64,000 nt of DNA, taken from assembly GCF_008802365.1 (NCBI RefSeq), contig NZ_VZQZ01000011.1, positions 129,501 to 193,500 on the forward strand. The letters run 5' to 3'. This DNA comes from Oryzomonas japonica (lineage in GTDB: Bacteria; Desulfobacterota; Desulfuromonadia; Geobacterales; Pseudopelobacteraceae). Shown here in pieces: positions 44,837-62,287 of this stretch; position 1 is the stretch's first letter; each line of letters opens with the position of its first letter. The position numbers and the translations under genes are program-made. The notes beneath the pieces were generated by a model. That model was not told the DNA's origin. It was given only the letters and a program-made list of their open reading frames with translations, and made no database searches.

Positions 44837-46198
44837 TTACAGCGTTTTTCTGATCTTTGCCGGAATCCCCCGCGAGCAGGGGATATTGGTGGAGCAATGA
44901 CCACAAGAGCCGTAATTCCATTCCTTGAAATGTTCCTTGTTGCCGTGGGTCTCGCACCTTCCGGGCAACTTGCCGGCATCGGTGACGGCCCCGGTGGGGC
45001 AACGCCTGATACAGGCATCGCAGCTTCCGTCAAAGGCATACAGACAGTAGCCGTAGACCTCCGTGTAGTTCCTTTCCGTCGGGGTCAGGTGCAATGTGGT
45101 GACGACACTGCACAGCCGCCCCAGGCATCCCTTTTCGGAGATGAAATTCTGGTGCAGGCCGAAGGTGCCGAGTCCGGCGGCGAAAGCGGCATGCCGCTCC
45201 GACCAGAACGGCCGCCAGTTATCGGAATCGTAGCGGGGGTCGATATTGGGCGCGACAGCCTTGCCACCATGCTGCGCGGCAAAACGGATCAAGGCCCGGC
45301 GGACCACGTTGAGAAACTTTGAGCCGTTCCATTTGCCGGACGAAAATTCGATGGCGGAATAACGCTGCTCCCTGGAGTAGTTGGCCGATATATGCTCCGT
45401 GAACGGCAGAAAGACGCTGATGACCGAACGGGCTCCCGGCAGCCATTCATAGGGGAGCCGGTGCCCCGGGCCGACCACCTCCGGGTCCTGAAAACGCTCG
45501 AACAACGAGTCATGGGCGGAAGCGATGCCGATCAGCGGTTCAGCCCAGATCGGCGGGTTTGTCCCTTCCGGGAGCGCGTTGCGGAAATCGGTCTTCACCA
45601 GATGAGCCACAAAATGCAACAGTTCATCGTACGGGACATCGGGCCGAACCTTTCCGTCAATCACATTTTTCGGCACGGGATCGGGCTGGAAGAACAAGGG
45701 GTTGATCCCGTTCTTGATCTCCCGCCCCCTGGTCTTCTGCTCGGGGTTGGGATGGGGCGATCCCTTGACGATCAGAGGGACGTCAAAGGGTTTTCTGAAG
45801 CCGGGGGGCGACCCCTTGGTGAAGTCATAGGCGGTCCAGATATAAAGTTGTTCGTAGATATTTTCCAGCAACTCCTCGGCCAGTTCCGTCGCGCTTTGCC
45901 CATCGTTCAGGCGGGTGGCCCCCTCTTCCGGGAACAGTTCTCCCTCTATGAAGTAGTAGACCTCCTGGCGGATGGGGATGCTGGCGTTGCGCAGGGTGGC
46001 GGTCCGGTCCGAGGTTCGCACGGCAAGTACCTTGCGCCGGTCGGGCCTGTATTCATAAAGGTTCGCCTGGAGGATGTAGTCTTTCAGGCATTCGAATACC
46101 GACTGGCGATTGAGGATATTCGGGTACGGTTCGCCCCACTTGGGGATCTCGTTGACAAACAGCGAAGTGCTTTCGGATGATAAATTTTTGCCGGACAT
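44837..46198 (-). CDS. QueG/reductive-dehalogenase-like 4Fe-4S protein (paralogue of 26105..26944 with long N-terminal extension)
   Basis: WSERHAAFAAGLGTFGLHQNFISEKGCLGRLCSVVTTLHL...CDACIRRCPTGAV...CGHCSTNIPC. Start chosen at MSGKNLSS. Confidence 0.6.
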   Translation of the reverse strand: MSGKNLSSESTSLFVNEIPKWGEPYPNILNRQSVFECLKDYILQANLYEYRPDRRKVLAVRTSDRTATLRNASIPIRQEVYYFIEGELFPEEGATRLNDGQSATELAEELLENIYEQLYIWTAYDFTKGSPPGFRKPFDVPLIVKGSPHPNPEQKTRGREIKNGINPLFFQPDPVPKNVIDGKVRPDVPYDELLHFVAHLVKTDFRNALPEGTNPPIWAEPLIGIASAHDSLFERFQDPEVVGPGHRLPYEWLPGARSVISVFLPFTEHISANYSREQRYSAIEFSSGKWNGSKFLNVVRRALIRFAAQHGGKAVAPNIDPRYDSDNWRPFWSERHAAFAAGLGTFGLHQNFISEKGCLGRLCSVVTTLHLTPTERNYTEVYGYCLYAFDGSCDACIRRCPTGAVTDAGKLPGRCETHGNKEHFKEWNYGSCGHCSTNIPCSRGIPAKIRKTL

Positions 46199-46208
46199 GA
46201 CGGTCTCC

Positions 46209-46973
46209 TTACCGTTTCCCTGTCCAGTACAGGGCTCTGCGCTGGATCGCATCGAAAATTTCCATCATCAGGATGATGAAGATGGACATGAAGATCATGC
46301 CTGCCAGGACACGGGGATAGTCGGAGAAGTCCGAATAATACTGAATGAAATACCCCATGCCGGATTTGGCCCCGAACATCTCCGCAACCGTCAGCAGGAT
46401 GAAGCTGAAGACCAGCGCCATCCCGGCCCCGGCAAAGATATGGGGGAGCGCCCCCGGAAAGACCACCAGTCGGAACAGGCGGTTGCCATGGAGCCCCAAC
46501 GCCCTGGCGTTATCCAGATAACGTTCCTCCAGCAGCACTACCCCATGGATGGTCCCCATCAGGATGGGCCAGAAGGCGCCCACAAAAACGATGAATGCCG
46601 ACGAGAGCCAGAACGTGGGCAGTACGGAGATGGCGTAGGGGATCAGCATCGTGGGTGGGATCGGGCTGATGCCCCTGAAGAGGGGCATCAGCGTGGTCCG
46701 CACGGCCTGGTGATAGCCGACGAAAAGCCCTAGGACGACACCCAGGACCAAAGCCAGGAAATAACTGGGCAGCAGCAGGCCGAAGGAGCTCAACAGGCCT
46801 TCGAGGAGCTTGGGGAGCGCCTCGGCAAATGCCGGGAGAATCCTGGAAAGCCCGGGGAACAGGACCGGTTCCAGCCATCCCGTGATATCGGTAGCCAGTT
46901 CGAAGATGGCTACGAAGATCAGGATGATGATGACTGTCCCGGTGTATTTTTTAACGTTTGTGGTCAGTAACAC
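46209..46973 (-). CDS. ABC transporter permease, NitT/TauT (sulfonate/nitrate/taurine) family
   Basis: SsuC/TauC-type permease with EAA-like loop (LEERYLDNARALGLHGNRLFRLVVFPGALP). Confidence 0.8.
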   Translation of the reverse strand: MLLTTNVKKYTGTVIIILIFVAIFELATDITGWLEPVLFPGLSRILPAFAEALPKLLEGLLSSFGLLLPSYFLALVLGVVLGLFVGYHQAVRTTLMPLFRGISPIPPTMLIPYAISVLPTFWLSSAFIVFVGAFWPILMGTIHGVVLLEERYLDNARALGLHGNRLFRLVVFPGALPHIFAGAGMALVFSFILLTVAEMFGAKSGMGYFIQYYSDFSDYPRVLAGMIFMSIFIILMMEIFDAIQRRALYWTGKR

Positions 46974-46985
46974 GGGCTATTCCCT

Positions 46986-48035
46986 CTAACTGTTCTGCTT
47001 TTCAAAGTGTTTTTTCGCATTCAGGTAATAACGGTCCTTGGGATTGCGGCGGATCAATTCACCGAGCGCGTCGCGGTACAACTGGGTGTTGATGTAGCGA
47101 TTGATATCCAGTTCCGACGTGACATAGTTGATCTCCTTCAGCTCATGCCACATCTGCTTGACCCGGTGCTTGTCGGGATCGACGCTGACGTGCTGGTGCG
47201 GTTCACTCACGAAGGTGGCAGCCAGGTTGTCGTCGATATTCATATAGCGCTTGGTTATGTTCTGGGCCAATTTGGGGTTGGTGTCCTTGATCTTTTCGGC
47301 TTGCAGCAGAGCCCGCAGGAAAGCCCGGTAGACGTCCGGGGCGCCGTTGACCGCCTTGCCCTTGGCGACGATGCGGCAGCAGGGATGCTGCGGGAAAAAA
47401 TCGTTGCTCCACCCGACGATCGCGAGGCCGGATTCCTTGGCTTGCAGGAAGATGGACGACGCACCGATACCCACATCGACCTTGCCCGATTTGACCGCTT
47501 CCAGCACAGCAGGCGGATTTTTCAGTTCTATGATCTTCAGATCTTTGTTCGGGTCGAGTCCGGCGCGTTTGAGCGCCCCGCGCCAGACCACGTCCGCCGT
47601 ATAGAGCCGGGGAACGGCAACCGTTTTCCCCTTGAAGTCCCTGATGGTTTTAAATTGCCCGGCCCGCGCGGGAAGGGCTATTACCGGATGCCCCCCTGCC
47701 AGGGCCCCGCCGATGATAGTAAAGTCGGATCCCTTGGAGATAAAGGTCAGCGGCGCCGCCGTGCCGAAAGAGATCCCGATGTCGATCTTGCCGCTGTTGA
47801 GCGCATTCAGGCCGTCGCCGGTGCTGCTGAACTGCACCAATTCGACCTCGACGCCCTCCTTGGTAAAGAGCTTCTGATCCTGGGCGACAAAGGCCAGGAT
47901 GCTGGCGCCGCCGGGGGTATAGCCAACCTTGAGTTTTCCCTGCTGTTTGGCCTGTGCCTGGGTCATGGTCAGCAGCAGCGCGACCAGCACCAGGGCAATA
48001 ATGTTGCCTGCCAGTACCACTTGTTTCAACCTCAT
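46986..48035 (-). CDS. ABC transporter substrate-binding protein (NMT1/SsuA-like)
   Basis: Signal peptide then an NMT1-type periplasmic binding fold. Confidence 0.75.
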   Translation of the reverse strand: MRLKQVVLAGNIIALVLVALLLTMTQAQAKQQGKLKVGYTPGGASILAFVAQDQKLFTKEGVEVELVQFSSTGDGLNALNSGKIDIGISFGTAAPLTFISKGSDFTIIGGALAGGHPVIALPARAGQFKTIRDFKGKTVAVPRLYTADVVWRGALKRAGLDPNKDLKIIELKNPPAVLEAVKSGKVDVGIGASSIFLQAKESGLAIVGWSNDFFPQHPCCRIVAKGKAVNGAPDVYRAFLRALLQAEKIKDTNPKLAQNITKRYMNIDDNLAATFVSEPHQHVSVDPDKHRVKQMWHELKEINYVTSELDINRYINTQLYRDALGELIRRNPKDRYYLNAKKHFEKQNS

Positions 48036-48072
48036 CTGATTCTCCTTTAAGTAATATGAAAATGGACTAAAG

Positions 48073-48975
48073 TTAGTTCCGCCACCTCAGTAAATGGCGT
48101 TCAAGCCGTTCCGTGCCGAAGGTAATGACCAGCACCACCAGACTTATGAAGATGATGCCCACGACCACCCGCGGGTAGTCGGCAAAGTCGGCGAAGTTCT
48201 TCACATACCAGCCGATGCCCGAGTTGGCCCCGATCAGTTCGGCGGCGGTCAACAGCACGAAGGCAAAGACCAGTGCAAGCGTAGCCCCGGTGCAGATGGA
48301 GGGCATGGCACCCGGCAGGATGACCCGCAGCAGCAAGGTATGCTCCTTCAAGCCCAGTACCCGGGCGGAGTCCAACAGCCCCTTGGGGATGTTGAAGACA
48401 CCGTTGACCGTGTTGATGAAAATGGGCCAAAAAGCGCCGATGAAGATCACGAAGATCGAGGCAGCACGGAAGCTCGGCAACAGGGCAATGGCGTAGGGAA
48501 TATAGACAATGGGCGGAATGGGCCCCAGCACCTTGGTGAACGGGTTGACGGCATGGAACAGGCGGACCCGCCAGCCGACCAGAAGCCCCAGCGGCAGGGC
48601 GGTTGCCACAGCCAGCAGATACCCGCTCACCAACAGGATCAGGGAGTTCACCAGCCCCTTGAGCATGTCCGGCAATTCGGCCACGAACAGCGTCAATACC
48701 GCTTCCGGCTGGGGGAAGAGCATCTTGTCCAGCACAATGAAGCGGGAGGTGGCCACGTACCATGCCAGAAGAATGGCAAGGATGATGGCGCTCACATCGC
48801 TGGATCCCCGACGCGATGCTTCATTTTTGACGGTAGCCAGCATGATCAGATCAATGGCCTTGACCACAATGGCCACGGTCAGGAGGTGCCAGGGGACCGG
48901 CCCCGCCGACGGCCAGAGAATGGCTGCCAGCAGGGTGATAAAGAGCAGGTTTGAAGTAGTTGTTACCTGGTTCAT
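48073..48975 (-). CDS. ABC transporter permease, NitT/TauT family (second)
   Basis: SsuC-type six-TM permease (LDSARVLGLKEHTLLLRVILPGAMP). Confidence 0.8.
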   Translation of the reverse strand: MNQVTTTSNLLFITLLAAILWPSAGPVPWHLLTVAIVVKAIDLIMLATVKNEASRRGSSDVSAIILAILLAWYVATSRFIVLDKMLFPQPEAVLTLFVAELPDMLKGLVNSLILLVSGYLLAVATALPLGLLVGWRVRLFHAVNPFTKVLGPIPPIVYIPYAIALLPSFRAASIFVIFIGAFWPIFINTVNGVFNIPKGLLDSARVLGLKEHTLLLRVILPGAMPSICTGATLALVFAFVLLTAAELIGANSGIGWYVKNFADFADYPRVVVGIIFISLVVLVITFGTERLERHLLRWRN

Positions 48976-49034
48976 GGGTTATATCCTGATAGGTATGAAT
49001 GTGCGGTTCCGAATCGCAGCCCTGGAATGCCTTC

Positions 49035-50063
49035 TCAATTGTTCTTTTTGTAGAAGCTCAGCATCTGCTGATAGACCTTGTCCTTAGGATTTTTCTTGAT
49101 GACCGAATCAAGCGCCTGCTTGTAGATGTCGGTGTTGATATGCTTATCGATCGGGTAGTCCTGAGGGATGTAGCCCGCTTCACGGATATGCTGCCAGAAA
49201 TCCAATATTCCCTTGCGGAGCGGGTCGGGGTTCGATTCGGACACCTTTTTCACGTACGTTTCATTGCGGACGATGCCTTCGTCGATCTTCAGGGACTTGG
49301 TATAGATCCTGACCGTCTCTTCGGGGTTGGTTTTATAGAACCTGTAGGCACGGATCAGCGCGGCCAGGAAACGGCGATAGGTATCCTTGTCGGCATTCAG
49401 TTTGGCCGTGGGGGCAACGATGCGGCAGCAGGTGTATTTGGGGTAGTATTCTTCAAGGTAGTGGGCAACCTTCAAGCCGCTGTTCTTCTCGGCCAGTGAA
49501 AAGTGAGGCGGCCACAGGAGTCCGGCATCCACAGAACCTTTCTTGATCGCCTCCACCACCGCCGTGGCCGAGCCCAGCTCAACGAACGTGATATCCTTTT
49601 TCCAGTCGATGCCGGCTTTTTTCAGGGCGCCCTTGAAGATGACATCACCGGTGGAAAGCTTCACTAGGCCGATCTTTTTCCCTTTGTAGACCTTGAGGTT
49701 TTTACCCGCAAGTTCGGCCAGACGATCCGGACGGGTGACAATGGCCTGTCCGCCGATCATCATGCCGCCGAAGAAGGTGAAGTCGGACCCTTTGGAAATG
49801 AACAACAGCGGCGCGGTGGTGCCGAAGGTGCCCACGTCCAGTTTTTCAGCCTTGAGCGCAGCTATGCCCTCGGAGGCGCTGCCGAACTGGAACAACTCCA
49901 CGTCAACCCCTTCTTCCTTGAAGTAGCCCTTTTCCTTGGCCACGAAGTACAACCCGTGGGCCGGCTCAGGGACATACCCCACCCGAAGCTTGGGCAGGTT
50001 CGCGGCAACAGCGACGGACATCATGAACATTGACAGCAGGAAAGCGGCGATGATCCTCTTCAT
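49035..50063 (-). CDS. ABC transporter substrate-binding protein (NMT1/SsuA-like, second)
   Basis: Signal peptide MKRIIAAFLLSMFMMSVAVAA. NMT1 fold. Confidence 0.75.
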   Translation of the reverse strand: MKRIIAAFLLSMFMMSVAVAANLPKLRVGYVPEPAHGLYFVAKEKGYFKEEGVDVELFQFGSASEGIAALKAEKLDVGTFGTTAPLLFISKGSDFTFFGGMMIGGQAIVTRPDRLAELAGKNLKVYKGKKIGLVKLSTGDVIFKGALKKAGIDWKKDITFVELGSATAVVEAIKKGSVDAGLLWPPHFSLAEKNSGLKVAHYLEEYYPKYTCCRIVAPTAKLNADKDTYRRFLAALIRAYRFYKTNPEETVRIYTKSLKIDEGIVRNETYVKKVSESNPDPLRKGILDFWQHIREAGYIPQDYPIDKHINTDIYKQALDSVIKKNPKDKVYQQMLSFYKKNN

Positions 50064-50881
50064 TGGGTACTACCTCCTTGTAACGTAAATAGTCTGCCGG
50101 AATTGGCCGGGCAGCAATTGGGCGTGCAGACCGCCTTGGAGAACAGCTCTTGCAGGACAGGGTCCATGGGACCAATCAACAGGCGATCCAGCGCATCACA
50201 GTAAATCTCTTCATAGACATGGTTTGCCAGGAAATCACCCGGCATAGCGGCATCCTGGAGGCCGAGCCCTTGCCAGATGCGGAGCATGCGCCAATAGTCA
50301 GGATTGGGGTCGAAATGGATATTCGGGACGGTTGCACCTTGCGATAGCTTCTGCAGCGTCGCCTGCCTGACTACCGGTGATTGTTGCTGCAACGTGCGGT
50401 GGGCCCGGATCAGGGCGGCGGTCAAGCCGATGATGGAGCCCTTTTCGGCCACCGGCCGGTTTGCCGGTACGAGCACGACAATCCCCCTGCGCTCCTGCTC
50501 ACCCTGGTGGTTTTCGTCCAGGCTTGCCAGCGGCCCCGTGTCGGTGGGGGTCCCGCCTCCGGCAATGATGCGAAATCCCTTTCCTTTGGCTATCTGCCCC
50601 AGCGCCTCTCCGACCATGAAGGCCCCGGCGTCGATGGAGCCCGCTTCAAGGGCGGCCAAGCCGCTGGCGGTATCCTGAAATTTGACCAGCTTGACCTGCA
50701 ATCCTTCTTCGCGAAAATGCCCGTGTGTTGCGGCAACGCGGCACAGGGCGCTGCCGGGGTGGTCCAGATAGCCCAAGCGGAAAAATTTTCCCGCCGCATG
50801 GCACGGCATGACGCCGGAGACCAGCAACAGTACCGCCATGAGAGACGGTGCCGCTATCCGGTGGACATGCCCGAAATTCAT
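50060..50881 (-). CDS. ABC transporter substrate-binding protein (NMT1-like, third, shorter)
   Basis: Signal peptide then KFFRLGYLDHPGSALCRVAA... Confidence 0.65.
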   Translation of the reverse strand: MNFGHVHRIAAPSLMAVLLLVSGVMPCHAAGKFFRLGYLDHPGSALCRVAATHGHFREEGLQVKLVKFQDTASGLAALEAGSIDAGAFMVGEALGQIAKGKGFRIIAGGGTPTDTGPLASLDENHQGEQERRGIVVLVPANRPVAEKGSIIGLTAALIRAHRTLQQQSPVVRQATLQKLSQGATVPNIHFDPNPDYWRMLRIWQGLGLQDAAMPGDFLANHVYEEIYCDALDRLLIGPMDPVLQELFSKAVCTPNCCPANSGRLFTLQGGSTQ

Positions 50882-51693
50882 ATCCCATCCCCCTGGGATG
50901 CGACTATCTGACCGGCATCCAGCTCGGAGAGGATGTTTTCGTACAGCACCGTGACCAGCCGGTCCCGCAGCGTCTGGAAGGTCTGGTTGTGGTACAGTTC
51001 CTGGCGGATGCGGGGACGGGGTAGGTCCACCTCGAATACTCCCTTTATGGTACCGGGATTGACACCCAGCACAACGATGCGGTTGGCCAGCAGGATGGCC
51101 TCCTCCACGTCGTGGGTAACGAAGAAGACGGTCTTGCGCTCGTCCTGCCGCTGCTGCCAGAGCTGGAGAAGCAGGTCCTGGAGCCGAGCGCGGGTGATGG
51201 CGTCCAGCGCGCCGAAGGGCTCATCCATCAGGAGCACCGGCGCGTTGATGGCAAAGGCCCGCGCAATGGCCGCCCGCTGGCGCATCCCGCCGGAAAGCAG
51301 GCCGGGGAGCTTGTCATAGGCATCCGCCAGGCCGACCATTTCCAGGTAGCCGGCCGCCGTCTCCCGGTACTCATCTTTCTTCTTTCCGGGGAAGGCCTGT
51401 TCCAGGGCCAGGACGATATTCTGCCCGGCGGTCATCCAGGGAAACAGGGAGTAATCCTGAAAGACCACGCCCCGGTCCAGGCCGGGACCGCTGATCTGCT
51501 TCCCGTCCAGGGTTATACCGCCTGACGACGGAAAGGAAAGGCCCGCCAGAAGCCGCAAGAGCGTGCTCTTGCCACAGCCGGACGGCCCCAGCAGGCAGAC
51601 GAAATCTCCCGGTTCGGCGGTAAAGGTGATGTCCTGTAGGACCCGTTGGTCACCGTAGGAATAATTGACGTTGGACAATGTTACTTCATACAT
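50878..51693 (-). CDS. ABC transporter ATP-binding protein (SsuB/TauB-like)
   Basis: Walker A LLGPSGCGKST, signature LSGGMRQR and Walker B LLMDEPF. Start at MYEVTLSNV. Confidence 0.85.
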   Translation of the reverse strand: MYEVTLSNVNYSYGDQRVLQDITFTAEPGDFVCLLGPSGCGKSTLLRLLAGLSFPSSGGITLDGKQISGPGLDRGVVFQDYSLFPWMTAGQNIVLALEQAFPGKKKDEYRETAAGYLEMVGLADAYDKLPGLLSGGMRQRAAIARAFAINAPVLLMDEPFGALDAITRARLQDLLLQLWQQRQDERKTVFFVTHDVEEAILLANRIVVLGVNPGTIKGVFEVDLPRPRIRQELYHNQTFQTLRDRLVTVLYENILSELDAGQIVASQGDGI

Positions 51694-51703
51694 GGAAATA
51701 TCC

Positions 51704-52360
51704 TCACAGATCCCGTTTATCGGCCAGCCGCTTGTAGTACGAGTGACTGGTGTACAGCGCGCCGACCGGGTTATGGGCCAGCACGCGGTCCTTGACCACA
51801 AGGTAGGTTACCGGCGCTTCGGAATATTTTATGAACATGGAATCGTGGCCGACACACAGGCCGACGATTATGTTCAAATCGGTTTTTTCCCTGGCCAGGA
51901 TGCGGGCCTGAAGCACCGGGTTGCAGGCCGATTCGTGCTGCCCTTTGTTGATCTTGAACTCTTCAGGAATACCCAATTCGGTCTTGTCCACCGAACCGAC
52001 CTTGCAGGCCACGGTATAGCTCTGGATTCCCTGGGCATCGAGAAACTTGATGAAGTTTTTGGTCTCGTTGATCAGGCCGACGCAGGTGGCGATGCCGACC
52101 TTCTTTGCCTTGATGCGGCGCGCAAAGGCGGCCACTTCCTCCACGCGGGTCAACCTGCCGTAGTAGGTCCCTTCGACCTCTGCGGCGGCGTTGGAAATTT
52201 TCGAAACCAACGGATCTTCGCGATAAATGCGGTTGACCTCCTCAATTTCCTGTTTATCCTCGGCCTCGGTCAGGCAGAAGGCGGGAAAAACGGAGGTCCG
52301 CGAGTTGCAGTTGATGGTGGCGCAGTCGCCACAGGTCAGTACGTTCTTTTTCTTGGCCAT
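51704..52360 (-). CDS. Cys-rich metal-binding protein, DUF1847-like
   Basis: LTCGDCATINCNSRTSVFPAFCLTEAE...GLCVGHDSMF is a DUF1847-type Cys pattern. 218 aa. Confidence 0.5.
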   Translation of the reverse strand: MAKKKNVLTCGDCATINCNSRTSVFPAFCLTEAEDKQEIEEVNRIYREDPLVSKISNAAAEVEGTYYGRLTRVEEVAAFARRIKAKKVGIATCVGLINETKNFIKFLDAQGIQSYTVACKVGSVDKTELGIPEEFKINKGQHESACNPVLQARILAREKTDLNIIVGLCVGHDSMFIKYSEAPVTYLVVKDRVLAHNPVGALYTSHSYYKRLADKRDL

Positions 52361-52388
52361 GATTCTCTCCGAAGTAGGGTATTTGCGA

Positions 52389-52522
52389 CTGTTGAAAAGC
52401 TCAGGTTGTTCAAAAATAGTCAGATCGTCGCACCCGGAGAAGGCCCTGAGGAGGCGTAGCAGCGCTACGCCGCACGAAAGGGCTTTCGAGGAGGGCGGCG
52501 AGATGGCTGTTTTTCAACAACC
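52389..52522 (+). repeat. MITE-like repeat, copy 4 (inserted inside the nif-like operon between the nifH-like and DUF1847 genes)
   Basis: Aligns end-to-end with copy 3. Confidence 0.8.
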
Positions 52523-52524
52523 TC

Positions 52525-53400
52525 TTAGATGCTTGCCCCGCTGCTGCGGACCTCCCCGGCCTCAACGGCCAGGATCTGATCGGACCAGTCGGCGGCCCAC
52601 TTGCGCAGCGCCTCCGCGCTCAGCGGCTCCGGCACCCTGGATTCCGTGTGGTTGGCGATCCGGTCGGCAAGCTTCTTATAGACCTGGGCCTGCTCGGAAT
52701 CGGGGAAGGCCTCGATGGTGGTCTTACCCTGCAACTCGGCCTGGGTGACGGTGATCGAACGAGGTACATACTCCATCACCTGGGTGTTGGTGCGTGCCAC
52801 GAAGTCGTCGATGATATGTTTGGCATAGGGTGCATTGACGGAGTTGGCGATCACGCCGCCCAAAAGTGCCCCACCGTTGTTGGAGTACTTCTTGATGCCG
52901 GTGAACAGATTGTTTGCGGCGTAAATGGCCATAAAGTCCGACGACGACACCGTGAAAACGTGCTCGGCGATCCCTTCCCGGATCGGTACGGCAAAGCCGC
53001 CGCAGACCACGTCCCCCAGGACATCGTAGATTACGTAATCCAGGTCCAGTTCCTCGAAAACCCGTTGCTGTTTGAGCAGCTCAATGGCGGTGATAATGCC
53101 GCGACCAGCGCAGCCGACCCCCGGCGCGGGGCCGCCGGCCTCCACGCAGTGGACGCCGTTGAAACCGGAGAAGACCACCTCGCTGGCCTTGGCGCTCTTC
53201 TTTTCCCGCAGGGTGTCAAGGATAGTGGGTATATAGTTGCCCCCCCGCAGGGTGACGGTGGAGTCGTTCTTGGGGTCGCAGCCGACCTGCATGACCTTGT
53301 AGCCTGCTACCGACAGGGCGGCGGTGATATTGGAGGTGGTGGTGGATTTACCGATGCCTCCCTTGCCATAGATCGCTATCTGTTTCGGTTTTTTTGCCAT
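52525..53400 (-). CDS. nitrogenase Fe-protein-like ATPase (NifH/BchL/CfbC/MarH family)
   Basis: P-loop [15 protein letters not shown], switch [10 protein letters not shown] and both 4Fe-4S ligand cysteines (GVGCAGRG; DVVCGGFA) are conserved. 291 aa. Confidence 0.85.
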
Positions 53401-53412
53401 CTGTTCCTCCGA

Positions 53413-53757
53413 TTATTTGATGTAGGTAAAACGCTTCGACGCCCGCAATGTTTCCAGGGCCTCGTCAATGGGGCCACCCATGGTGAAGGCCAGAATCCGG
53501 TGGCCGATGAGGGCGTCGATGGCGCCGGGGCCGACCTGGGCGGCCACGACCCCTCGGCAGTCGGAAATGAGTTGTGCCGCCTGGTCCAGAACATCGTCGT
53601 CGTGCTGCTGCCCCCCGCAGACCGGGGTATTTTTCCGCAGTTCCAGGAATTCATGCCCTTCGTCGTGCAGCCGGTAGATGCGGAAGGCCTGCGCCCTGCC
53701 GAAATGCTCGTTTATTGTCGTCCCGTCGCTGCTTGCCACGGCGATCTTTACATCCAT
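53413..53757 (-). CDS. dinitrogenase FeMo-cofactor-binding-like domain protein (NifX/NafY/NifB-C-terminal family)
   Basis: MDVKIAVASSDGTTINEHFGRAQAFRIY...VVAAQVGPGAIDALIGHRILAF matches the NifX/NafY-type domain. RBS GAGGAG upstream. Confidence 0.7.
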   Translation of the reverse strand: MDVKIAVASSDGTTINEHFGRAQAFRIYRLHDEGHEFLELRKNTPVCGGQQHDDDVLDQAAQLISDCRGVVAAQVGPGAIDALIGHRILAFTMGGPIDEALETLRASKRFTYIK

Positions 53758-53780
53758 GAGCCAGCTCCTCGTTGGGGTAG

Positions 53781-53834
53781 AAAATAAAAAAAGAGGTCAA
53801 GGTATGGGCGAAATTCTCGCCCAGCCTTGACCTC
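53781..53834 (-). terminator. strong intrinsic terminator/attenuator 24 nt upstream of the nifX-like start codon
   Basis: On the minus strand, the nested GC hairpin GAGGTCAAGG-CTG-GGCGAGAATTTCGCCC-ATAC-CCTTGACCTC is followed by TTTTTTTATTTT. Next come CTACCCCAACGAGGAGCTGGCTC and the ATG. Confidence 0.55.
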
Positions 53835-54129
53835 CAGTGTATCTGGTCGGCCGTTGCCGGTATGATTGTGTGAAGCTGAAACAGTTGGACAGAGTTCTTG
53901 ACTTAAGTGGTGTTGCTTAAGTGATGGTCAAGTTAACATTTACAGGTGGCTCCGTCAACAAAAAAATAATATTATGTCTATCTATTTTATATTTTATTTA
54001 AATATTCGTAGAAAAGTGGCAAAAACGCACCCGCTTTCAGACTCATTTTGTTGAGTAATCAAGGGGATAATCATTGAATGCGGAGAACGTGGCGCAAGCG
54101 CGGTTCAGCGGAGGGCGTACAGGGCCGGG

Positions 54130-54975
54130 CTACGTATTCAGAAAATGGGACAAAACCTGCTCCTTGAGACCCTGAACGGCAACAGTCTGATGCCGTCGCG
54201 GCCGGGGAACGTCAATGGCAACCCGACCACGAATCGCTCCAGGCGCAGGGGAAAAGACGTAGACCTCGTCGGACAGGCAGACCGCTTCGCCCACATCGTG
54301 AGTCGCCAGAACAATAGTTATGCCACTGGTTTCCCAGAGACGCACCAGATCGTCCTGGAGCTTTTCCCTGGTCAGGGCGTCAACGGCTGCAAAGGGCTCA
54401 TCCATTAGGATGATCCCGGGTTCCGCGGAAAAGGCCCGCGCCAGGGCCAGCCGCTGACGCATGCCGCCCGACATGTGGGCTGGGTAGCTGTTGGCGGCCT
54501 CCTCCAGTCCGACCATAGCCAGATAGTGGCGGGCCAGTTTTTCACGCTCACCCCGGGGGACGCCGCGCAGCCCCAAGACGAATTGTACGTTCTGGCGGGC
54601 GGTCATCCAGGGGAAGACGGCGTAGTCCTGAAAGATCATGGCGATGTCGTGCCGGGGTTTGTTGCGGAAGAGGCTGTTGGCGATGGGCGAGAGAAAGCGG
54701 TGTTTTTTGCGATACGCTTTAATCCCGGACGGTGTGTTGGGTAGCGGCTCCAAGAGCCGAGTCCCGTCGATGCGCACCTCGCCGTGGGACGGCGCCTGGA
54801 GACCGGCCAGAATTTCCAGGAAGGTGGACTTGCCGCAGCCGGTCGGACCGACCAGGGACACAAAGGCGCCGTCCCCGATGGTGAGCGACACCGACTGCAG
54901 CACCGTCTTGTCCGTCGTACGCCCCTGCCCGCTTGAAATGGGAAAGGTTTTGGTGATAGCGACCGCCTCGATCAT
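54130..54975 (-). CDS. ABC transporter ATP-binding protein (NitT/TauT family, second system)
   Basis: Walker A LVGPTGCGKST, signature MSGGMRQR and Walker B ILMDEPF. Confidence 0.85.
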   Translation of the reverse strand: MIEAVAITKTFPISSGQGRTTDKTVLQSVSLTIGDGAFVSLVGPTGCGKSTFLEILAGLQAPSHGEVRIDGTRLLEPLPNTPSGIKAYRKKHRFLSPIANSLFRNKPRHDIAMIFQDYAVFPWMTARQNVQFVLGLRGVPRGEREKLARHYLAMVGLEEAANSYPAHMSGGMRQRLALARAFSAEPGIILMDEPFAAVDALTREKLQDDLVRLWETSGITIVLATHDVGEAVCLSDEVYVFSPAPGAIRGRVAIDVPRPRRHQTVAVQGLKEQVLSHFLNT

Positions 54976-54979
54976 GGCG

Positions 54980-55822
54980 TCACCGTTCGATGCGCCATAC
55001 GGCCAGCTTCAACTCGGCGTATTTCATGATTTCGGTCATAAGCCATCCCGCCGCGCCCAGGATCAGCATGCAGACCACCATCCGGTCGATCTGAAAATAT
55101 TCCTTGCCCCGCAACAGCAAATAGCCTATTCCGCTGCCGCCGCTCTGCATTTCGGCCACCACCAACATGACCAGCCCCAGGGCGATGCCGATCCTGATCC
55201 CCATGATAACCGAACCAAGGGCGTGCCAGATATGGACGTGGGTGATGATGGTAAATTCACTGGCGCCAAAGACGCGGGCCGAGGCGATGTACCGGGGGTT
55301 GGTTTCACTGATTCCCTGGTAAGTACTAAACAACACCGGATAGAAAACCCCCAGGAAGATGAGGAATACCTGCATCGGCAGGCCGATACCCAGCACGATT
55401 ATGGTGACCGGCACCCAGGCCGGCGGCGGGATCGGCGCCAGGATCTGGAACAGAGGCAGGCAGTGCTTGCGGATGAACCGGTTCCACCCCATCACCACCC
55501 CGAGGGGAAAAGCGGTCGCCACCGCCAGGGCGAAGCCGAGCAAGAATCGGAGCGCGCTCTCGCCCAGGTGTGCCAGCAGGTGTTGTTTCTGAAACATCTG
55601 GCTGCAGGCGGAAACAAGTGTTGAGGGTGGCGGGACCAGGGATGCGGGCACCAGGCCGAGCAGGGGCAGGACCTCCCAGAAGATCAGCAGCGGAACCAAA
55701 ACGGTCAGGGATTCCCGGGACAACAGGCTGCCGAAGGATGACCGCCAGAAGAGCCGCACCTCAACCAACAGCCGCCGCCAGCGACCTTCAGCCTCACCCG
55801 CAATCAGCGGAGTACCAGGCAT
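54980..55822 (-). CDS. ABC transporter permease (NitT/TauT family, second system)
   Basis: SsuC-type permease (ISETNPRYIASARVFGASEFTIITHVHIWHAL). Confidence 0.8.
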   Translation of the reverse strand: MPGTPLIAGEAEGRWRRLLVEVRLFWRSSFGSLLSRESLTVLVPLLIFWEVLPLLGLVPASLVPPPSTLVSACSQMFQKQHLLAHLGESALRFLLGFALAVATAFPLGVVMGWNRFIRKHCLPLFQILAPIPPPAWVPVTIIVLGIGLPMQVFLIFLGVFYPVLFSTYQGISETNPRYIASARVFGASEFTIITHVHIWHALGSVIMGIRIGIALGLVMLVVAEMQSGGSGIGYLLLRGKEYFQIDRMVVCMLILGAAGWLMTEIMKYAELKLAVWRIER

Positions 55823-56718
55823 CGCCCATCTCCCAACTCCTTGCGCAGGTCATCGCCCACCGTCACGAAGTTTGCCGCCGGCAGCCGCTCCAGGTCTTCC
55901 CGGGAATAACCGAGCCTTTTGCTTACCGCCTTGCGTAGTTCGGCAGGGGGCAGTGCGCTGGCCGCCAAAAGGGACTGCACCACCGGCTTGAGCGCCTCCA
56001 CGGCCCCTCCCCTGACCACCAGAAAATAATCGCTCTGGGCCAGGGCCGCCGGGCAACATTCGTCGCCGGCCTTGATGTCCCAATTCTGGTAGAGCACCTT
56101 GTGCCCCAGATGCTCGGCGAGTACCGCGTAGGAGCCCTTTACCAGCACGGCATCGACCTTGCCCGCCTCCAGAGCGGGCACCATCTCGTCGAAAGACATG
56201 AATCGGGTATGTATGCGATCCACATCGACGCCCAGTCGCTTGGCGTCCCTCCTGAACTGGTGGAGCAGCTTGCAGTCCGGCTCCTGGGCCGCAATGGTCC
56301 TGCCGGCAAGATCCCCCAGGCGGATGTTCAGGTCCTTGCGGATCACCAGCGTCGCGCCGTAGGGAAACTGTACGGCCCCGGCCACCTTGAGGGTCTCGCC
56401 TCCGGGTGCCTTGAGCAGCTTGACCGCCTTGTTGGTCTCCACGAATCCGGCGTCGATCTTGCCCGAGATTAGGGAATAGCCGATGTCGCCACCACTACCG
56501 ATGGGGACCGCTTGCCAGGTGTGCGGCCGGCCTGTCTGGCGTTCATCGGCTGCGTAGATCGGTCCCAGCAGGGGGCTGTCCCCGTAGCCGATACGGAGCA
56601 CCGGTGACGACGAGGCGGAACCCTGGGGAGGATTCTGCTTTTGGCATGCCGCACACAGTAGTATCGTTGTGAAGAGCAGCGCAAACCATGGGGCACGTGA
56701 TTGTAGTTTCCGGTTCAT
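55804..56718 (-). CDS. ABC transporter substrate-binding lipoprotein (NMT1/SsuA-like)
   Basis: Lipobox LLCAAC. NMT1-like fold. Confidence 0.7.
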   Translation of the reverse strand: MNRKLQSRAPWFALLFTTILLCAACQKQNPPQGSASSSPVLRIGYGDSPLLGPIYAADERQTGRPHTWQAVPIGSGGDIGYSLISGKIDAGFVETNKAVKLLKAPGGETLKVAGAVQFPYGATLVIRKDLNIRLGDLAGRTIAAQEPDCKLLHQFRRDAKRLGVDVDRIHTRFMSFDEMVPALEAGKVDAVLVKGSYAVLAEHLGHKVLYQNWDIKAGDECCPAALAQSDYFLVVRGGAVEALKPVVQSLLAASALPPAELRKAVSKRLGYSREDLERLPAANFVTVGDDLRKELGDGRCLVLR

Positions 56719-56755
56719 CAGTTAGTAATCCTCCGCGGCTCCGTAGTGAATATGG

Positions 56756-57706
56756 TTAATGGACACGACCCCAGGTAATTCCCTTGAATGCTGGGGCATA
56801 CAGGTTATCCTTCGGGTTTTCCCGGATTTCCCTCAGGGACGCCAACTCCTCACCCAGGGTGTTTAAACCTTTTTCATTGATCCTGTCGCTAAACGTAAAA
56901 CGACGAGCGGCACGCGTGATCGCCTGCTGCGGCGCCCCGGTGTATTTCAGGGCTATCTCCGCGACCTGTCGGGAGGCAGGGGCTTTGTTGATAAAGCTAT
57001 TGGCCTCCCGGATGGCCGCGACCAGGCGCTTGAGCGCGTCCGGGTTTTCCTTGAGATAGGCCGTGCGTACATTGATGGTTCGGCAGGGGAACTTTTGGGG
57101 GGCATCTCGCAGGACCACCCGATATCCTTTGATCTCGGCAATGGCGAGGTGTGGGTCCTCCAGGATGGCGCCATCCACCTTGCCGGCATCCAGTGCAGCT
57201 ATGGCCTGCCCTCCGGCCAACTTTTCCAGGACAAAGCGGGCGCCGGTTTCACGGGCCTTTTTCTCGTAGGCAATGACCGCCTCGCAGGCCGGGGAACTGC
57301 CGGCAATGCGTTTCCCGTTCAAATCCTTGTAGGACTTGATGGGAGAACCTTTCGGAACGACGAGCAGCGAGGAGCAGGGGGCCTTGACCTGGGCAATTAT
57401 CTTGAGCGGTGCGCCGTTGGCGATGGCCGAGACAGCCACCGACGGGCACGACCAGAAAACATCGGCTTGGCCTGAGATCACCAAATCGCGGGCCAGGGCC
57501 GGGTCCCTGGCCTCCACAATGGCGACGTCAAGCCCGTGTTTCCGGAACAACCCGCGTTCCTGGGCCACATACAGGTTCAGGTGGTTGGTTGTTTTGGCGT
57601 CGGCAACGATGATTCTGGCGGGGGCAGCGCCCTGGCGGGCCGCGACAGCCCCCGCCAGGACCGCAGAAACGCCAACAACAATAATCCCGGTTCTCCACAT
57701 GCCCAT
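56756..57706 (-). CDS. ABC transporter substrate-binding protein (NMT1/SsuA-like, second of system 2)
   Basis: Signal peptide MGMWRTGIIVVGVSAVLAGAVAA. RBS AAGGGGA. Confidence 0.7.
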   Translation of the reverse strand: MGMWRTGIIVVGVSAVLAGAVAARQGAAPARIIVADAKTTNHLNLYVAQERGLFRKHGLDVAIVEARDPALARDLVISGQADVFWSCPSVAVSAIANGAPLKIIAQVKAPCSSLLVVPKGSPIKSYKDLNGKRIAGSSPACEAVIAYEKKARETGARFVLEKLAGGQAIAALDAGKVDGAILEDPHLAIAEIKGYRVVLRDAPQKFPCRTINVRTAYLKENPDALKRLVAAIREANSFINKAPASRQVAEIALKYTGAPQQAITRAARRFTFSDRINEKGLNTLGEELASLREIRENPKDNLYAPAFKGITWGRVH

Positions 57707-57734
57707 ATCGGTTTCCCCTTTGTTCCTGTTACCG

Positions 57735-59114
<1,380 letters not shown>

Positions 59115-60089
59115 CTAACGGGCTTCCGCCAATCGGGCACCTTGCGGCGCTCCCTGCGCCAGCGGGAGCGCGGTGTCTTTCGACCAGCCGATCCACGAAC
59201 TGTCGTAGTTGTGCAGCTTCTCCAGCGGCCAGCCGGCGAGGTACAGCGCAAAGAGTGCCTGGGTGGAGCGCACCCCGGACTGGCAGTAGAAGTACTGTTC
59301 CTTATTCCTGTCGTAGCCGAGCGTGTGCAGCAGGTGCTCAAGTTCGGCGGCATTCAGCCACTCGGCCTGATTATCCTTTTTCTTGAACAGTGCCCAGTTG
59401 CTGTGGTTGCTGCCCGGAATCCGGCCGGCGCGGTAGGCGCCCTTCTTCAGCTCCTCGCCGGTAAACTCCTTCAGGTCCCGGTTATCCCACAACTGGGCGG
59501 TTGCACTACCACGCTTGGCATTGATCTCAGGGGTATCAACCCGCAGCCGCGGCTCGGCGATGCGGGCGGCAAAACCACCTCTGCGGGCCCGGGCGTCCGG
59601 GGCCAGGATATCGACCGGATACCCGGCCGCACGCCACGCCTTGACGCCGCCGTCCAACACCCTGACATCCCTCTTCCCGTAATAGGTGAAGGCCCACCAG
59701 AGGCGGGTGGCGTCGTACTTTGTGTCATAGACCACCACAACAGAGTTCTGGTCGATACCGAGCCCCTGAGCCAATCTGCTGAAACCGGCGGCATCGATGA
59801 TATTGCCGGTGACGCCGTTCTGGGTCTCCGGGGGCGCCTCAATGGCCGGGCGATCCACCTGGCGCGAACCGGGGATGTGTCCCAGGCGGTATTCCACGTT
59901 GTTTTCAGCCGCCAGGATCACCAGTTTCGGGTTGTGGACATCGATCAAGCGCTTCAGTTCCTGGACGCTGATCAAAGCGTTCCCCCGGGGGTACCCCTTG
60001 TAGCCGGCCTCTCCGGCAAAGGCACTGGCCAGCGTCAGGTTCAGCAGGGCCAGGATCGTGAAAATAATACGGATCGGTTTTGTGTTCAT
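59115..60089 (-). CDS. periplasmic tandem-rhodanese sulfurtransferase (thiosulfate/3-mercaptopyruvate sulfurtransferase-like)
   Basis: Signal peptide. Two rhodanese modules. Active-site loop YCQSGVRS. Confidence 0.75.
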   Translation of the reverse strand: MNTKPIRIIFTILALLNLTLASAFAGEAGYKGYPRGNALISVQELKRLIDVHNPKLVILAAENNVEYRLGHIPGSRQVDRPAIEAPPETQNGVTGNIIDAAGFSRLAQGLGIDQNSVVVVYDTKYDATRLWWAFTYYGKRDVRVLDGGVKAWRAAGYPVDILAPDARARRGGFAARIAEPRLRVDTPEINAKRGSATAQLWDNRDLKEFTGEELKKGAYRAGRIPGSNHSNWALFKKKDNQAEWLNAAELEHLLHTLGYDRNKEQYFYCQSGVRSTQALFALYLAGWPLEKLHNYDSSWIGWSKDTALPLAQGAPQGARLAEAR

Positions 60090-60224
60090 GGCACGTCTCC
60101 TTTTGAATGGAAAAAGGCCGGGAAATGCCCATGATTATGGGACATTGAACCCGGCCTCCGGTTTTTCCGGTCAGCACAGAATCGTTTGTCGCAGGCCGTG
60201 GGGGCCTGTTCTGTAGTTACGGGC

Positions 60225-61232: not shown

Positions 61233-62105
61233 TCAAATCGCAGCCCCATCGGTAACCAGGCCGTTTTCAAGAGCATAGATCCGGTCTCCCCACGTTCGCG
61301 CCCATGCCCGCAGTTCTTCGGGCTGCATCGGCACAGACGGGCCCGGCTGGGACGCAGCCTCGTCAACGATCTGATTGGCCAGTCTGCGGTAGAAATAGGA
61401 CTGGTTGGAGAGGGGCGACGCCTCGATGACGGTCTTGCCGTACAGTTCGCACTGTCTGACCATCAGGGAGCGGGGGATGCGCCCCATGGTGCGGGTGCGG
61501 GTCTGAACGGCAAAATCGGCGATAAACGATTCCTCGAACGAACTGCTGATGCTGTTGGGGATCAGTCCGCCCACCGGTACCGGCACATTCGATTCGCCAT
61601 AACGGTCCAACATCTTGAAGATGGCGTTGGCGGCATGCAGCGACATGAAATCGGCCGTTGTCACCACAAACACCCGCCGGACCCCGATCTGCTGGACCGG
61701 GGTATAGAAGCTGGAGCAGGTGCTGTCGCCGGAGATGTCGTAGAGCACGAAGTCAGGAGCGACGGCCTCGAACAGGTCGATCCTCTTCAGTTCTGCAAGC
61801 GCGCGGGCTATCTCGGACGATCCGCATTGGCCCGAGCCGAACGGATCACCCAACTCGACGCAGGTGACCCCCTTGAACCCCTTGTGGGCAACGGCATCAA
61901 CAGAGATCTCGCCCCGTTCCCGCAAAAGATCGAACACCGTCGGGATGGGATCGCCGTTGTTGAGGAGGCTGCACGAGTCGCCTTTCGGGTCACATCCAAC
62001 CTGCAGGACGCTGAAACCGGCTTCTGCCAGGGCGGCGCTGAGGTTGGAGGTCAAGGTGGATTTGCCCACTCCCCCCTTGCCGTATAATGCGATGTGTTCT
62101 GTCAT
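61233..62105 (-). CDS. divergent NifH-like P-loop ATPase lacking both canonical 4Fe-4S ligand cysteines
   Basis: P-loop LYGKGGVGKSTLTSN and switch GCDPKGDS are retained. The CAGRG motif is replaced by GSGQCGSS and VVCGGF by DSTCSSF. The C-terminus (RAWARTWGDRIYALENGLV) is collinear with the 52525..53400 NifH-like protein. Confidence 0.75.
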   Translation of the reverse strand: MTEHIALYGKGGVGKSTLTSNLSAALAEAGFSVLQVGCDPKGDSCSLLNNGDPIPTVFDLLRERGEISVDAVAHKGFKGVTCVELGDPFGSGQCGSSEIARALAELKRIDLFEAVAPDFVLYDISGDSTCSSFYTPVQQIGVRRVFVVTTADFMSLHAANAIFKMLDRYGESNVPVPVGGLIPNSISSSFEESFIADFAVQTRTRTMGRIPRSLMVRQCELYGKTVIEASPLSNQSYFYRRLANQIVDEAASQPGPSVPMQPEELRAWARTWGDRIYALENGLVTDGAAI

Positions 62106-62287
62106 GGGTCGCCTCGTTTCCCATCCGGCAATCCGTCGCGGGACTCCGAACGTTTGAAAAGCAAGAGGCCGGGGCTGCCCATGGAAGGGACATGAACCCC
62201 GGCCTCCGGTTTATCCGGTCAGCGCGGAAAAGATGATTGATCGTTGTTCAAAGTTGCGAACGGAACCCCGTCGCCGCCGTTTGAGGA

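Follow-up and report, generated by a model that had tools for sequence, protein, structure and literature searches.

We describe a conserved, covarying hairpin that shares bases with a strong intrinsic terminator and occurs both in leaders of sulfur operons and before phage late genes. It was found in a 64,000-nucleotide stretch of Oryzomonas japonica contig NZ_VZQZ01000011.1 (the window), in a spacer of 372 bp (53758-54129) that lies between an ABC-transporter ATPase gene (stop codon at 54130) and a NifX-like gene (ATG at 53757). Coordinates of the spacer, the hairpins and the genes of the surrounding sulfur island refer to the minus strand throughout. The centre of the spacer has a GC content of 0.28-0.29, compared with about 0.6 in the flanks. 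It contains a nested hairpin at 53835-53793, GGAGGUCAAGG-C-UGGGCGA-GAAUU-UCGCCCA-UA-CCUUGACCUC(U), which occurs once in the window and has an outer stem of 11 bp (one G.U pair included) and an inner stem of 7 bp. Directly 3' of this hairpin lies UUUUUUUAUUUU (U7AU4) at 53792-53781. The 96-nt hairpin context folds at -36.7 kcal/mol (z = -4.66), a value equalled by none of 200 shuffled sequences. With 18 bp in two helices, -31 kcal/mol and a following U7AU4, the structure is an intrinsic terminator, which a simple terminator scanner missed because of internal bulges. The U-tract ends 23 nt before the NifX-like start codon, and the hairpin lies 295 nt from the upstream ATPase stop codon. An earlier reading of the window from its letters alone (the sequence-only reading) had described an AT-rich spacer with a hairpin and U-run just before the ribosome-binding site (RBS) and start codon of the first nif-like gene; base composition, sequence and folding against shuffles all bear this out.

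Overlapping the 5' side of the terminator is a second, smaller hairpin (53852-53829), whose 24-nt RNA reads GGCCGACCAGAUACACUGGAGGUC. Its homologues share the consensus 5'-(N)GCU-GA-CYRG-AAAA(A)-CYRG-A-GGC(N)-3', that is, a 24-nt hairpin upstream of a terminator, with a lower stem of 3-4 bp, a GA/A internal loop, an upper stem of 4 bp and an A-rich loop. A covariance model (R1) built from homologous copies identified exactly three copies in the window, which we numbered 1 to 3 and which scored 33.6, 37.8 and 28.3 bits, respectively; the next best match reached 11.9 bits. Copy 3 (E = 1.2e-5) is the one in the spacer. Copy 2, with its motif at 60172 (GACCGGAAAAACCGGAGG), precedes an operon for a rhodanese, an O-acetylhomoserine (OAH) sulfhydrylase and an ABC transporter (ATG at 60089), and copy 1, at 62220 (GACCGGAUAAACCGGAGG), precedes a second NifH-like gene (ATG at 62105; Fer4_NifH). 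Folded alone, all three hairpins adopt the proposed shape at -9.0 to -9.8 kcal/mol (copy 3, -9.0), and their terminators fold at -27 to -32 kcal/mol.

The two structures compete for the same bases. At copy 3, the first seven nucleotides of the terminator (53835-53829, GGAGGUC) are also the 3' strand of the small hairpin: the 3' strand of the lower stem (P1a), GGUC, lies within the terminator 5' arm (53835-53825), and the GG of the upper stem (P1b) shares the first two bases of that arm. Since the 3' strand of the small hairpin supplies the first bases of the terminator stem, the two form an antiterminator/terminator pair. In 146 of 179 stable folds of collected copies, the final G of AGG in the motif is part of the terminator stem, and in 13 copies the terminator's 3' arm continues (CCUCCGGUUUU) and pairs with P1b and the loop as well. 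Shared bases and selection on the upstream helix together show the alternative helices of a transcription attenuator.

Selection on the helix is visible in comparative data. The sequence-only reading had proposed an alignment with related genomes in search of covarying stems, and this returned a conserved, covarying stem-loop fused to the terminator. A metagenome scan with a pattern that left four stem positions free as Y or R matched at least 120 contigs. Among the matches listed, 115 unique hits showed 112 Watson-Crick pairs, three G.U pairs and no mismatch at the inner two pairs of P1b, for each of which some 27 mismatches would be expected, and all four combinations of C-G/U-A and A-U/G-C occurred. 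G.U was tolerated and A.C was never seen, indicating that selection acts on RNA rather than DNA. An alignment of 99 copies, which was selected for P1b pairing so that the unbiased figure for P1b is that of the 115-hit scan, was 94.7% paired in the eight-pair structure ....((((..((((......)))).))))...... compared with 84.4% after shuffling (reached by 0 of 500 shuffles). At four pairs both partners vary; the covariation score is 0.383 versus 0.189, and slid registers all collapse.

Anchored profiles located the conserved lower-stem positions at G(-3), C(-2), U(-1) and C(+1), with no conservation further upstream of the motif or inside the terminator. Of 100 copies, 95 have a pair between -3 and +1 (70.5 expected; G-C 68, A-U 17, U-A 3, wobble 6) and 63 have one between -4 and +2 (44.7 expected). 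Position -2 pairs with the last G and position -1 with the middle G, the latter as U.G or, in copy 3, as C-G; in one Bacillota copy (L055) the -2 pair has changed from C-G to U-A. Two other structures were considered. A pairing of GACC with the terminator's GGUC, with CTTGAC/GTCAAG repeats upstream, was rejected for want of covariation, because GACC is invariant while its partner varies (GGCC, GGCU, AGCU). A K-turn reading of UGA...AGG was ruled out by strand order.

Alignment of the spacer with three related genomes (L001-L003) also revealed a putative promoter. A -35/extended -10 pair (TTGACA/G, 17-18 nt, TGnTAnnnT) is conserved in all four genomes, yet it falls below the threshold of a promoter scanner, which missed the weak -10. 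Transcription would thus start near 53923. The leader would then measure about 166 nt, with promoter and operator sequences making up the remainder of the 372 bp. The sequence-only reading had taken all 372 bp as leader; the terminator-bearing 5' leader probably stands, at less than half that length. Likewise, the -35-like TTGACC that it reported is present (53931-53926) but is not the conserved -35, which lies further upstream (Table 1). The direct repeats that it noted are real: CACTTAAG occurs at 53923-53916 and 53909-53902, at the predicted transcript start, where it is possibly an operator. Across the four genomes the repeat consensus is CAC(T/G)TAAG, followed by variable sequence and then by the motif and terminator. 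Upstream of the -35, a 12-mer box, TAGACATRATAT, is found twice in the window (53980-53969 and 63952-63941; 0.1 expected), once just before the -35 of the NifX-like operon and once over the start codon of an Rrf2-family regulator gene, and it may be a shared operator for that regulator. The predicted leader contains no ATG, GTG or TTG between the start (~53923) and the copy 3 hairpin, which rules out leader-peptide attenuation for copy 3.

Table 1. Features of the spacer and the sulfur island, in window coordinates.
Feature	Position	Strand	Evidence or remark
Copy 3 antiterminator hairpin: P1a GGCC/GGUC, internal loop GA/A, P1b CCAG/CUGG, loop AUACA	53829..53852	-	Covariance model, folding, covariation
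Copy 3 intrinsic terminator: nested hairpin 53835-53793 and U7AU4 53792-53781	53781..53835	-	-31.1 kcal/mol; compensatory stem changes in relatives
RBS GAGGAG (53770-53765) and start codon (53757-53755) of NifX-like gene	53755..53770	-	Sequence
Inferred sigma-70 promoter: -35 TTGACG (53958-53953), 17-nt spacer, extended -10 TGtTAACTT (53935-53930)	53930..53958	-	TTGACA-N17/18-TAnnnT conserved in L001-L003
Direct repeats CACTTAAG-N6-CACTTAAG	53902..53923	-	Variants CACGTAAA / CACGTACG in L001-L003
Conserved AT-rich block AAATATAAAATAGATAGACATAATATTA, containing TAGACATAATAT, upstream of -35	53967..53994	-	Four-genome alignment
Copy 2: hairpin 60175-60154 (GCU-GA-CCGG-AAAAA-CCGG-A-GGC) and terminator/U-run 60158-60111	60111..60175	-	37.8 bits, E = 2e-8
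Copy 1: hairpin 62223-62202 and terminator with interrupted U-run 62207-62157	62157..62223	-	33.6 bits
Rrf2-family regulator (63947-63486), then CysK-like PALP enzyme (63423-62470)	62470..63947	-	One apparent operon with yezD
yezD/DUF2292 gene, 60 aa, ending 67 nt upstream of copy 1	62291..62470	-	Pfam PF10055, 62.8 bits
NifH-like gene	61233..62105	-	Own attenuator copy (copy 1)
Rhodanese, O-acetylhomoserine sulfhydrylase, two SsuA-like binding proteins, permease, ATPase	54130..60089	-	Domain annotation
Controlled operon: NifX-like, NifH-like, DUF1847, ABC ATPase, SsuA-like binding proteins, permeases, QueG-like Fe-S protein, MarD-like, MarK-like	41917..53757	-	Annotation, structure search

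The element is widespread at sulfur genes. Among 80 loci gathered through the NifX-like protein, with no RNA pattern used, most Geobacterales loci carry a block (G)CUGACCAGA(A/C)A(A/C)ACUGGAGG upstream of the NifX-like gene. The block is fused to terminators with locus-specific, compensatory stems (GGUCAAGG/CCUUGACC, GGCUGAGA/UCUCGGCC, GGCUACGGAG/CUCGUAGCC and GGCCAGGGA/UCCCUGGCC), so that a conserved core, 5'-GCUGACYRGAAAACYRGAGGC, is joined to terminators of unrelated sequence. Further copies at these loci precede NifB-like, NifH-like and Fe-S genes. At three of them (L004-L006), the NifX-like and NifB-like genes are divergent and motif copies face both ways; with a divergent gene upstream, these copies cannot be 3' terminators. 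The intergenic regions of L004 (3658-3690), L005 (3702-3734) and L006 (3659-3691), all minus strand, together with copies near 3030-3096, hold two tandem copies on one strand and a third on the other, an arrangement that would give stacked attenuators.

In total, we collected 213 unique copies from Desulfuromonadota, Bacillota and phages, and the module precedes sulfur genes in more than 100 loci. A Pfam scan of the first open reading frames (ORFs) downstream of 83 copies identified PAPS reductases, rhodaneses and NifB-like radical SAM proteins (six each), NifX-like proteins (five), Cys/Met pyridoxal-phosphate enzymes (four), NifH-like proteins and ABC ATPases (three each), and corrinoid proteins and DUF2292 (two each); sulfite reductase subunits, CysK, MetK and a sulfate-binding protein were added by eye. 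Overall, the regulon comprises cysH, cysJI, cysK, metY, metK, sulfate and sulfonate transporters, rhodaneses and NifB/X/H-like genes. Named hosts are Oryzomonas, Geomonas, other Desulfuromonadales, Pelotomaculum (a weaker match), Dorea, Roseburia, Clostridium, Neobacillus, Robertmurraya and Anaerobacillus.

A gene for a very small protein of the DUF2292 family, YezD, recurs beside the motif; it ends 0-70 nt before many copies, both at sulfur operons and at phage late genes. Among 52 unique DUF2292-like ORFs in the loci collected, 43 have a motif with its U-run beginning between -2 and +67 nt relative to their stop codon (median ~10 nt; 3.6% for random ORF stops in the same DNA), a count biased by the fact that most metagenome loci were fetched by motif pattern. 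Sampling by protein first, which yielded a small set (n = 8), placed the motif at or just after the stop codon of six yezD genes (Dorea, Neobacillus, an abundant gut-metagenome protein, Robertmurraya, Roseburia and Anaerobacillus). The remaining two were Clostridium, with the motif 630 nt downstream after a 72-aa ORF, and Geomesophilobacter, whose motif is on the opposite strand at a distance of 370 nt. In several Bacillota, yezD ends in the very UGA that belongs to the motif. Geobacterales yezD genes end 35-67 nt before the motif and have a C-terminal extension. Conservation of YezD is confined to its C-terminal 25-30 residues. One locus (L099, minus strand, ~3353-2979) holds two yezD paralogues in tandem with a motif and terminator between them.

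Gene order connects yezD with sulfur. In the window, Dorea and Roseburia it comes after cysK, and in the first two of these a regulator gene (Rrf2 or LysR) stands ahead of both. Neobacillus and Clostridium have a SAM-I riboswitch in front of yezD; the Neobacillus order (L204:1828-1929) is SAM-I, yezD, hairpin/terminator, cysH, which suggests two control points in series. Each arrangement thus puts a control element related to sulfur or methionine upstream of yezD. From this gene order, yezD expression is probably sulfur-responsive. The Clostridium locus (L215) appears to contain two SAM-I elements (~1350-1440 and ~1810-1900), read by eye only.

The same pairing of gene and hairpin occurs in phages. 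Phage-like metagenome hits have a 50-70-aa ORF ending 2-6 nt before the motif, which matches PF10055 and, weakly, PF17356 (PBSX XtrA) and phrog_1551. Genes for sigma-like regulators (DUF1492, Sigma70_r4) and for the small terminase subunit follow these copies. In a tblastn search of sequenced phages, four Streptococcus satellite phages proved to have a YezD/XtrA-like ORF; in one of them, Javan724, the stop codon of this ORF directly adjoins the motif (32.9 bits), and the genes that lead to the portal protein follow downstream. Scanning IMG/VR gave 115 contigs with 68 unique copies, of which 65 were Watson-Crick, two had a G.U pair and one a mismatch. A YezD/XtrA-like ORF lies -6 to +12 nt before the copy in at least 34 of the 68 by hidden Markov model and in about 47 by eye. 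As protein gene and hairpin travel together into a setting that is not related to sulfur, the ligand of the hairpin is more likely a protein than a sulfur metabolite.

The sequence-only reading had suggested that the leader terminator acts as an attenuator through either a protein antiterminator or a novel RNA element. The putative upstream promoter, the covarying stem-loop, its recurrence at sulfur genes and the divergent loci support attenuation. At ~24 nt, the conserved sensor would be a remarkably short metabolite aptamer, so that of the two options a protein antiterminator is likelier. We propose factor-dependent antitermination with YezD as the RNA-binding factor, to which we assign a probability of about 0.5. 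Transcription would start at the promoter inside the spacer, near 53923, and the nascent RNA would first form the small hairpin 53852-53829. With the terminator at -31 kcal/mol and the hairpin at -9 kcal/mol, the default would be termination 23 nt before the start codon, and read-through would therefore need something that holds the small hairpin. A trans-acting factor that clamped this hairpin would prevent the bottom 4-7 bp of the terminator from forming; the remaining stem would be too far from the U-tract, and RNA polymerase would read into the operon. The factor would most likely be YezD/DUF2292 (50-60 aa), encoded at 62470-62291 in the Rrf2-cysK-yezD operon. Sulfur limitation would derepress this operon, and YezD would then open all three window copies in a two-step cascade, acting in trans and, on the copy behind its own gene, in cis. 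In phages, an XtrA-like homologue and the same hairpin would time late-gene expression.

Several points weigh against YezD as the factor. Each functional step of the scheme, binding and read-through included, is one that we infer. The adjacency count carries the sampling bias stated above, and the protein-first set is small. YezD is roughly charge-neutral rather than basic, and its AlphaFold model (a helix and a beta-hairpin, pLDDT 78) resembles no known RNA-binding fold. Copy 3, which lies 8.4 kb downstream of the window yezD, and many other copies lack an adjacent yezD, so action in trans must be assumed. Nothing in YezD obviously senses a ligand, so the sulfur signal would have to act on yezD expression (a SAM-I riboswitch or Rrf2/LysR control), a route that is suggested by gene order. 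Finally, the tight stop-codon overlap in Bacillota could reflect ribosome-mediated control instead.

A protein-free explanation is a very small riboswitch, in which the GA/A and A-rich loops, perhaps together with the foot of the terminator, would directly recognise a metabolite or ion that reports sulfur status, such as O-acetylserine, cysteine, sulfide or thiosulfate. We consider this unlikely. It would accommodate the unpaired nucleotides that are strictly conserved across two phyla beside the covarying stem, the coherent sulfur regulon downstream and the many copies, copy 3 included, without a nearby yezD. The Neobacillus motif in series with SAM-I is also what a second checkpoint would look like, and the HMP-PP riboswitch (PMC6478431) is a precedent for a tiny aptamer embedded in a terminator. 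Against it, the same invariant bases occur ahead of late genes of phages and satellites, which are unconnected with sulfur, and phage copies are almost always paired with a YezD/XtrA-like gene. The conserved part is only ~24 nt, with nothing conserved around it, which to our knowledge is smaller than any validated natural aptamer. Rfam 15 scans, run at the gathering threshold on the whole window and at a permissive E-value on the three copies and three related loci, returned only sub-threshold, miRNA-like hairpin matches; the positive control, SAM-I in L204, was detected at 84.8 bits. The impression from the letters alone that SAM-I is absent is thereby confirmed, with no match to SAM-I to SAM-VI, SAM/SAH, T-box, HMP-PP or another family.

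A little less probable again is that a protein operates the hairpin and is not YezD: another RNA-binding regulator or a general factor would act, with YezD merely a co-regulated sulfur protein or cis element. The architecture fits known protein-dependent antiterminators in general, YezD lacks a recognisable RNA-binding fold or basic surface, and our annotation covers two thirds of the window, not the remaining genome. However, no ANTAR or other RNA-binding regulator was found in the annotated two thirds, the small phage genomes that bear the motif share the XtrA/YezD-like ORF as a constant neighbour, and a host factor would not explain the conserved spacing of 2-5 nt between gene and hairpin.

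Translation-coupled control in cis is distinctly improbable as a general explanation. Here, the yezD/xtrA ORF would be a long leader or arrest peptide, and a ribosome that reached or stalled at its stop codon would cover the antiterminator 5' strand and so determine whether termination occurs. The stop codon does lie -2 to +15 nt from the motif in most copies from Bacillota and phages, with the motif's own UGA used in at least eight loci, and UGA-C is a weak stop context. Furthermore, the conserved C-terminal 25-30 residues of YezD correspond to what the ribosomal exit tunnel holds, roughly 25-30 residues. None of the three window copies has an ORF ending at the motif, however, the copy 3 leader lacks a start codon from the predicted start to the hairpin, and Geobacterales yezD genes end well before the motif, at the distances given above and with their C-terminal extension. 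Window-type copies also carry C in place of U and thus have no UGA. As it cannot explain orphan copies, translational coupling is at best an added layer in Bacillota.

We give almost no credence to a plain terminator of the upstream ABC-transporter operon with independent expression of the downstream operon: although the structure lies downstream of the ATPase gene with no other terminator evident between, and would also block read-through from upstream, it is far from the ATPase stop codon, the 23 nt up to the next start codon are too few for the promoter after the hairpin that the sequence-only reading had named as a refuting finding, a conserved putative promoter lies upstream of it, the fused hairpin recurs in leaders where the upstream gene is divergent (L004-L006) or absent, and the covariation is evidence of selection on the antiterminator.

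Antitermination by YezD would have a close parallel in the same bacterial order. In Geobacter sulfurreducens, the GnfK/GnfR system controls nif genes by antitermination, with the ANTAR protein GnfR binding a conserved sequence that overlaps nif leader terminators (Ueki and Lovley 2010, PMC2995071). Both systems control nitrogenase-family enzymes through a short conserved RNA overlapping the leader terminators of several operons, and in both, here as a proposal, a transcriptional regulator first induces the antiterminator in a cascade. Unlike in GnfR, whose sequence CAGGCAANGGCGCC is unrelated, the target here is a single hairpin, the candidate is a 60-aa DUF2292 protein rather than a response regulator, and the regulon is one of sulfur rather than nitrogen genes. 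Allowing up to two mismatches, CAGGCAANGGCGCC had four matches in the window versus 4.1 expected, none of them at the three terminators. An ANTAR target RNA is ruled out, as the element is a single hairpin with a 4-5-nt A-rich loop and nothing conserved upstream; Ramesh and colleagues reportedly described ANTAR targets in 2012 as two tandem hexaloop hairpins, each with A as the first and G as the fourth base of the loop, of which the second overlaps the terminator.

Other known systems resemble the element in part. HutP binding destabilises a terminator and PyrR binding decides whether a terminator forms, both proteins binding leader RNA. The targets of HutP are spaced UAG triplets, that of PyrR, which promotes termination, is an anti-antiterminator, and both proteins sense their ligand directly. 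The hut and pyr operons of Bacillus subtilis (PMC2425495) resemble the yezD loci in that the regulator gene comes first in the operon, followed by the terminator it controls, with further targets elsewhere. Unlike for HutP and PyrR, the target here is a single bulged hairpin whose loop is A-rich, and there is no evident ligand. The small phage protein lambda N binds boxB (GAAAA loop) in nascent RNA and acts processively with Nus factors at distant terminators. Both boxB (nut) and our element are short hairpins with an A-rich, purine-rich loop, and passage through terminators and the timing of later genes would be common to both; there is no sequence or fold relation. As the hairpin here physically overlaps one terminator, simple structural competition would be enough, unlike for lambda N. 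RAT, the ~29-nt target of BglG, SacY and LicT, has two internal loops, and these proteins have CAT and PRD domains and are controlled by the PTS. Like RAT, our element is an imperfect hairpin with an internal loop whose 3' half overlaps the terminator 5' arm and which a protein is proposed to stabilise, but its consensus differs and RAT has two internal loops. Finally, the HMP-PP (thiS) riboswitch (PMC6478431) likewise has few conserved nucleotides packed against an intrinsic terminator and is easily missed by motif searches; that RNA binds a metabolite, is in Rfam and has its conserved bases within and around the terminator stem, whereas no Rfam model matches our element.

Our literature search found no description of the motif or of a function for DUF2292/YezD/XtrA, although journals outside that search may hold one, and the motif is unmentioned in several motif-discovery papers and a Geobacter regulon reconstruction. 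The competition between antiterminator and terminator is a well-known kind of mechanism; what appears to be new is the RNA motif, together with its regulon, its use by phages and the protein proposed as its partner. Regulation of methylthio-alkane reductase (Mar) is known only as the LysR regulator SalR in Rhodospirillum, and a 2026 review calls the sensor unknown (PMC13474568). The element adds a post-initiation control layer to Mar-like clusters and to classical sulfate assimilation (cysH, cysJI, cysK, metY) in Desulfuromonadota and Bacillota, including gut Lachnospiraceae. It offers a testable function for two families of unknown function, DUF2292/YezD and XtrA, and suggests a way in which late transcription might be gated in numerous prophages of Firmicutes, in PBSX-like elements and in satellites of streptococci. 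If confirmed, so short and modular an RNA would be a compact part for synthetic gene control. We tentatively propose, at somewhat less than even odds, that YezD/DUF2292 and the XtrA-like proteins of phages, PBSX-like elements and satellites form an unrecognised, widespread family of very small RNA-binding antiterminators with a cognate 24-nt bulged hairpin. They would exert second-tier sulfur-starvation control in at least two phyla (cysH, cysJI, metY, sulfonate/sulfate transporters, Mar-type enzymes) and drive an early-to-late switch in phages.

On its predicted gene content, the minus strand from ~64 kb to 41.9 kb is a sulfur island (Table 1). The closest named relatives are Oryzomonas (Geobacteraceae), with 96% identity for the NifX-like protein and 98% for YezD. 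The operon controlled by copy 3 begins with a 114-aa Nitro_FeMo-Co (NifX/NifB C-terminal) protein. Its NifD-like protein is closest to Rhodospirillum rubrum MarD (PDB 9FMG and 9D9U, E = 1e-66; next structure, 5e-35), and the operon therefore probably encodes a methylthio-alkane-reductase-like, nitrogenase-like enzyme of organosulfur salvage. Ssu-like ABC transporters, an OAH sulfhydrylase and a rhodanese lie near the MarD-like gene. These features identify 53757-41917 as a putative Mar-like nitrogenase-like cluster.

The island has two NifH-like genes, 61233-62105 and 52525-53400, both on the minus strand and each with an attenuator copy. The former is followed by a methyltransferase gene and then by the rhodanese operon, and is split from the rest by this methyltransferase gene and a plus-strand tRNA-Lys (61106-61181). 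The covariance model found no motif in the 164-bp gap between the other NifH-like gene and DUF1847 (52361-52524), the best sub-threshold match being at 52279-52256, inside DUF1847. Elsewhere in the window, the plus strand encodes a 698-aa protein (15280-17376) with an NMT1/SsuA-like periplasmic binding domain, PAS and GGDEF, which could be a diguanylate cyclase that senses a sulfonate or thiamine precursor.

Some collected loci have less familiar genes behind the motif. Three (L091:2793, L124:7049 and L136:1756) have it before genes of ~800 aa for immune inhibitor A (InhA, peptidase M6); the sulfur role of these secreted proteases is not obvious, and the link could be the supply of amino acids or sulfur. 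Another (L081) has three copies within 1 kb (4947, 5170 and 5864), two of them with unusual loops (UGAAA, ACGGA), before genes for a YHS-domain protein and a corrinoid (B12-binding) protein, hinting that methyl-sulfide methyltransferase systems belong to the regulon. In Dorea acetigenes (L201:2241-2310) and four further loci (L213, L137, L187 and L193), a tRNA-Cys (GCA) gene, called by ARAGORN and by Rfam tRNA at 44 bits, lies between the yezD-motif-terminator unit and NifB/NifX/NifH-like genes. Being downstream of the attenuator, this tRNA would be co-transcribed in these Lachnospiraceae only after read-through.

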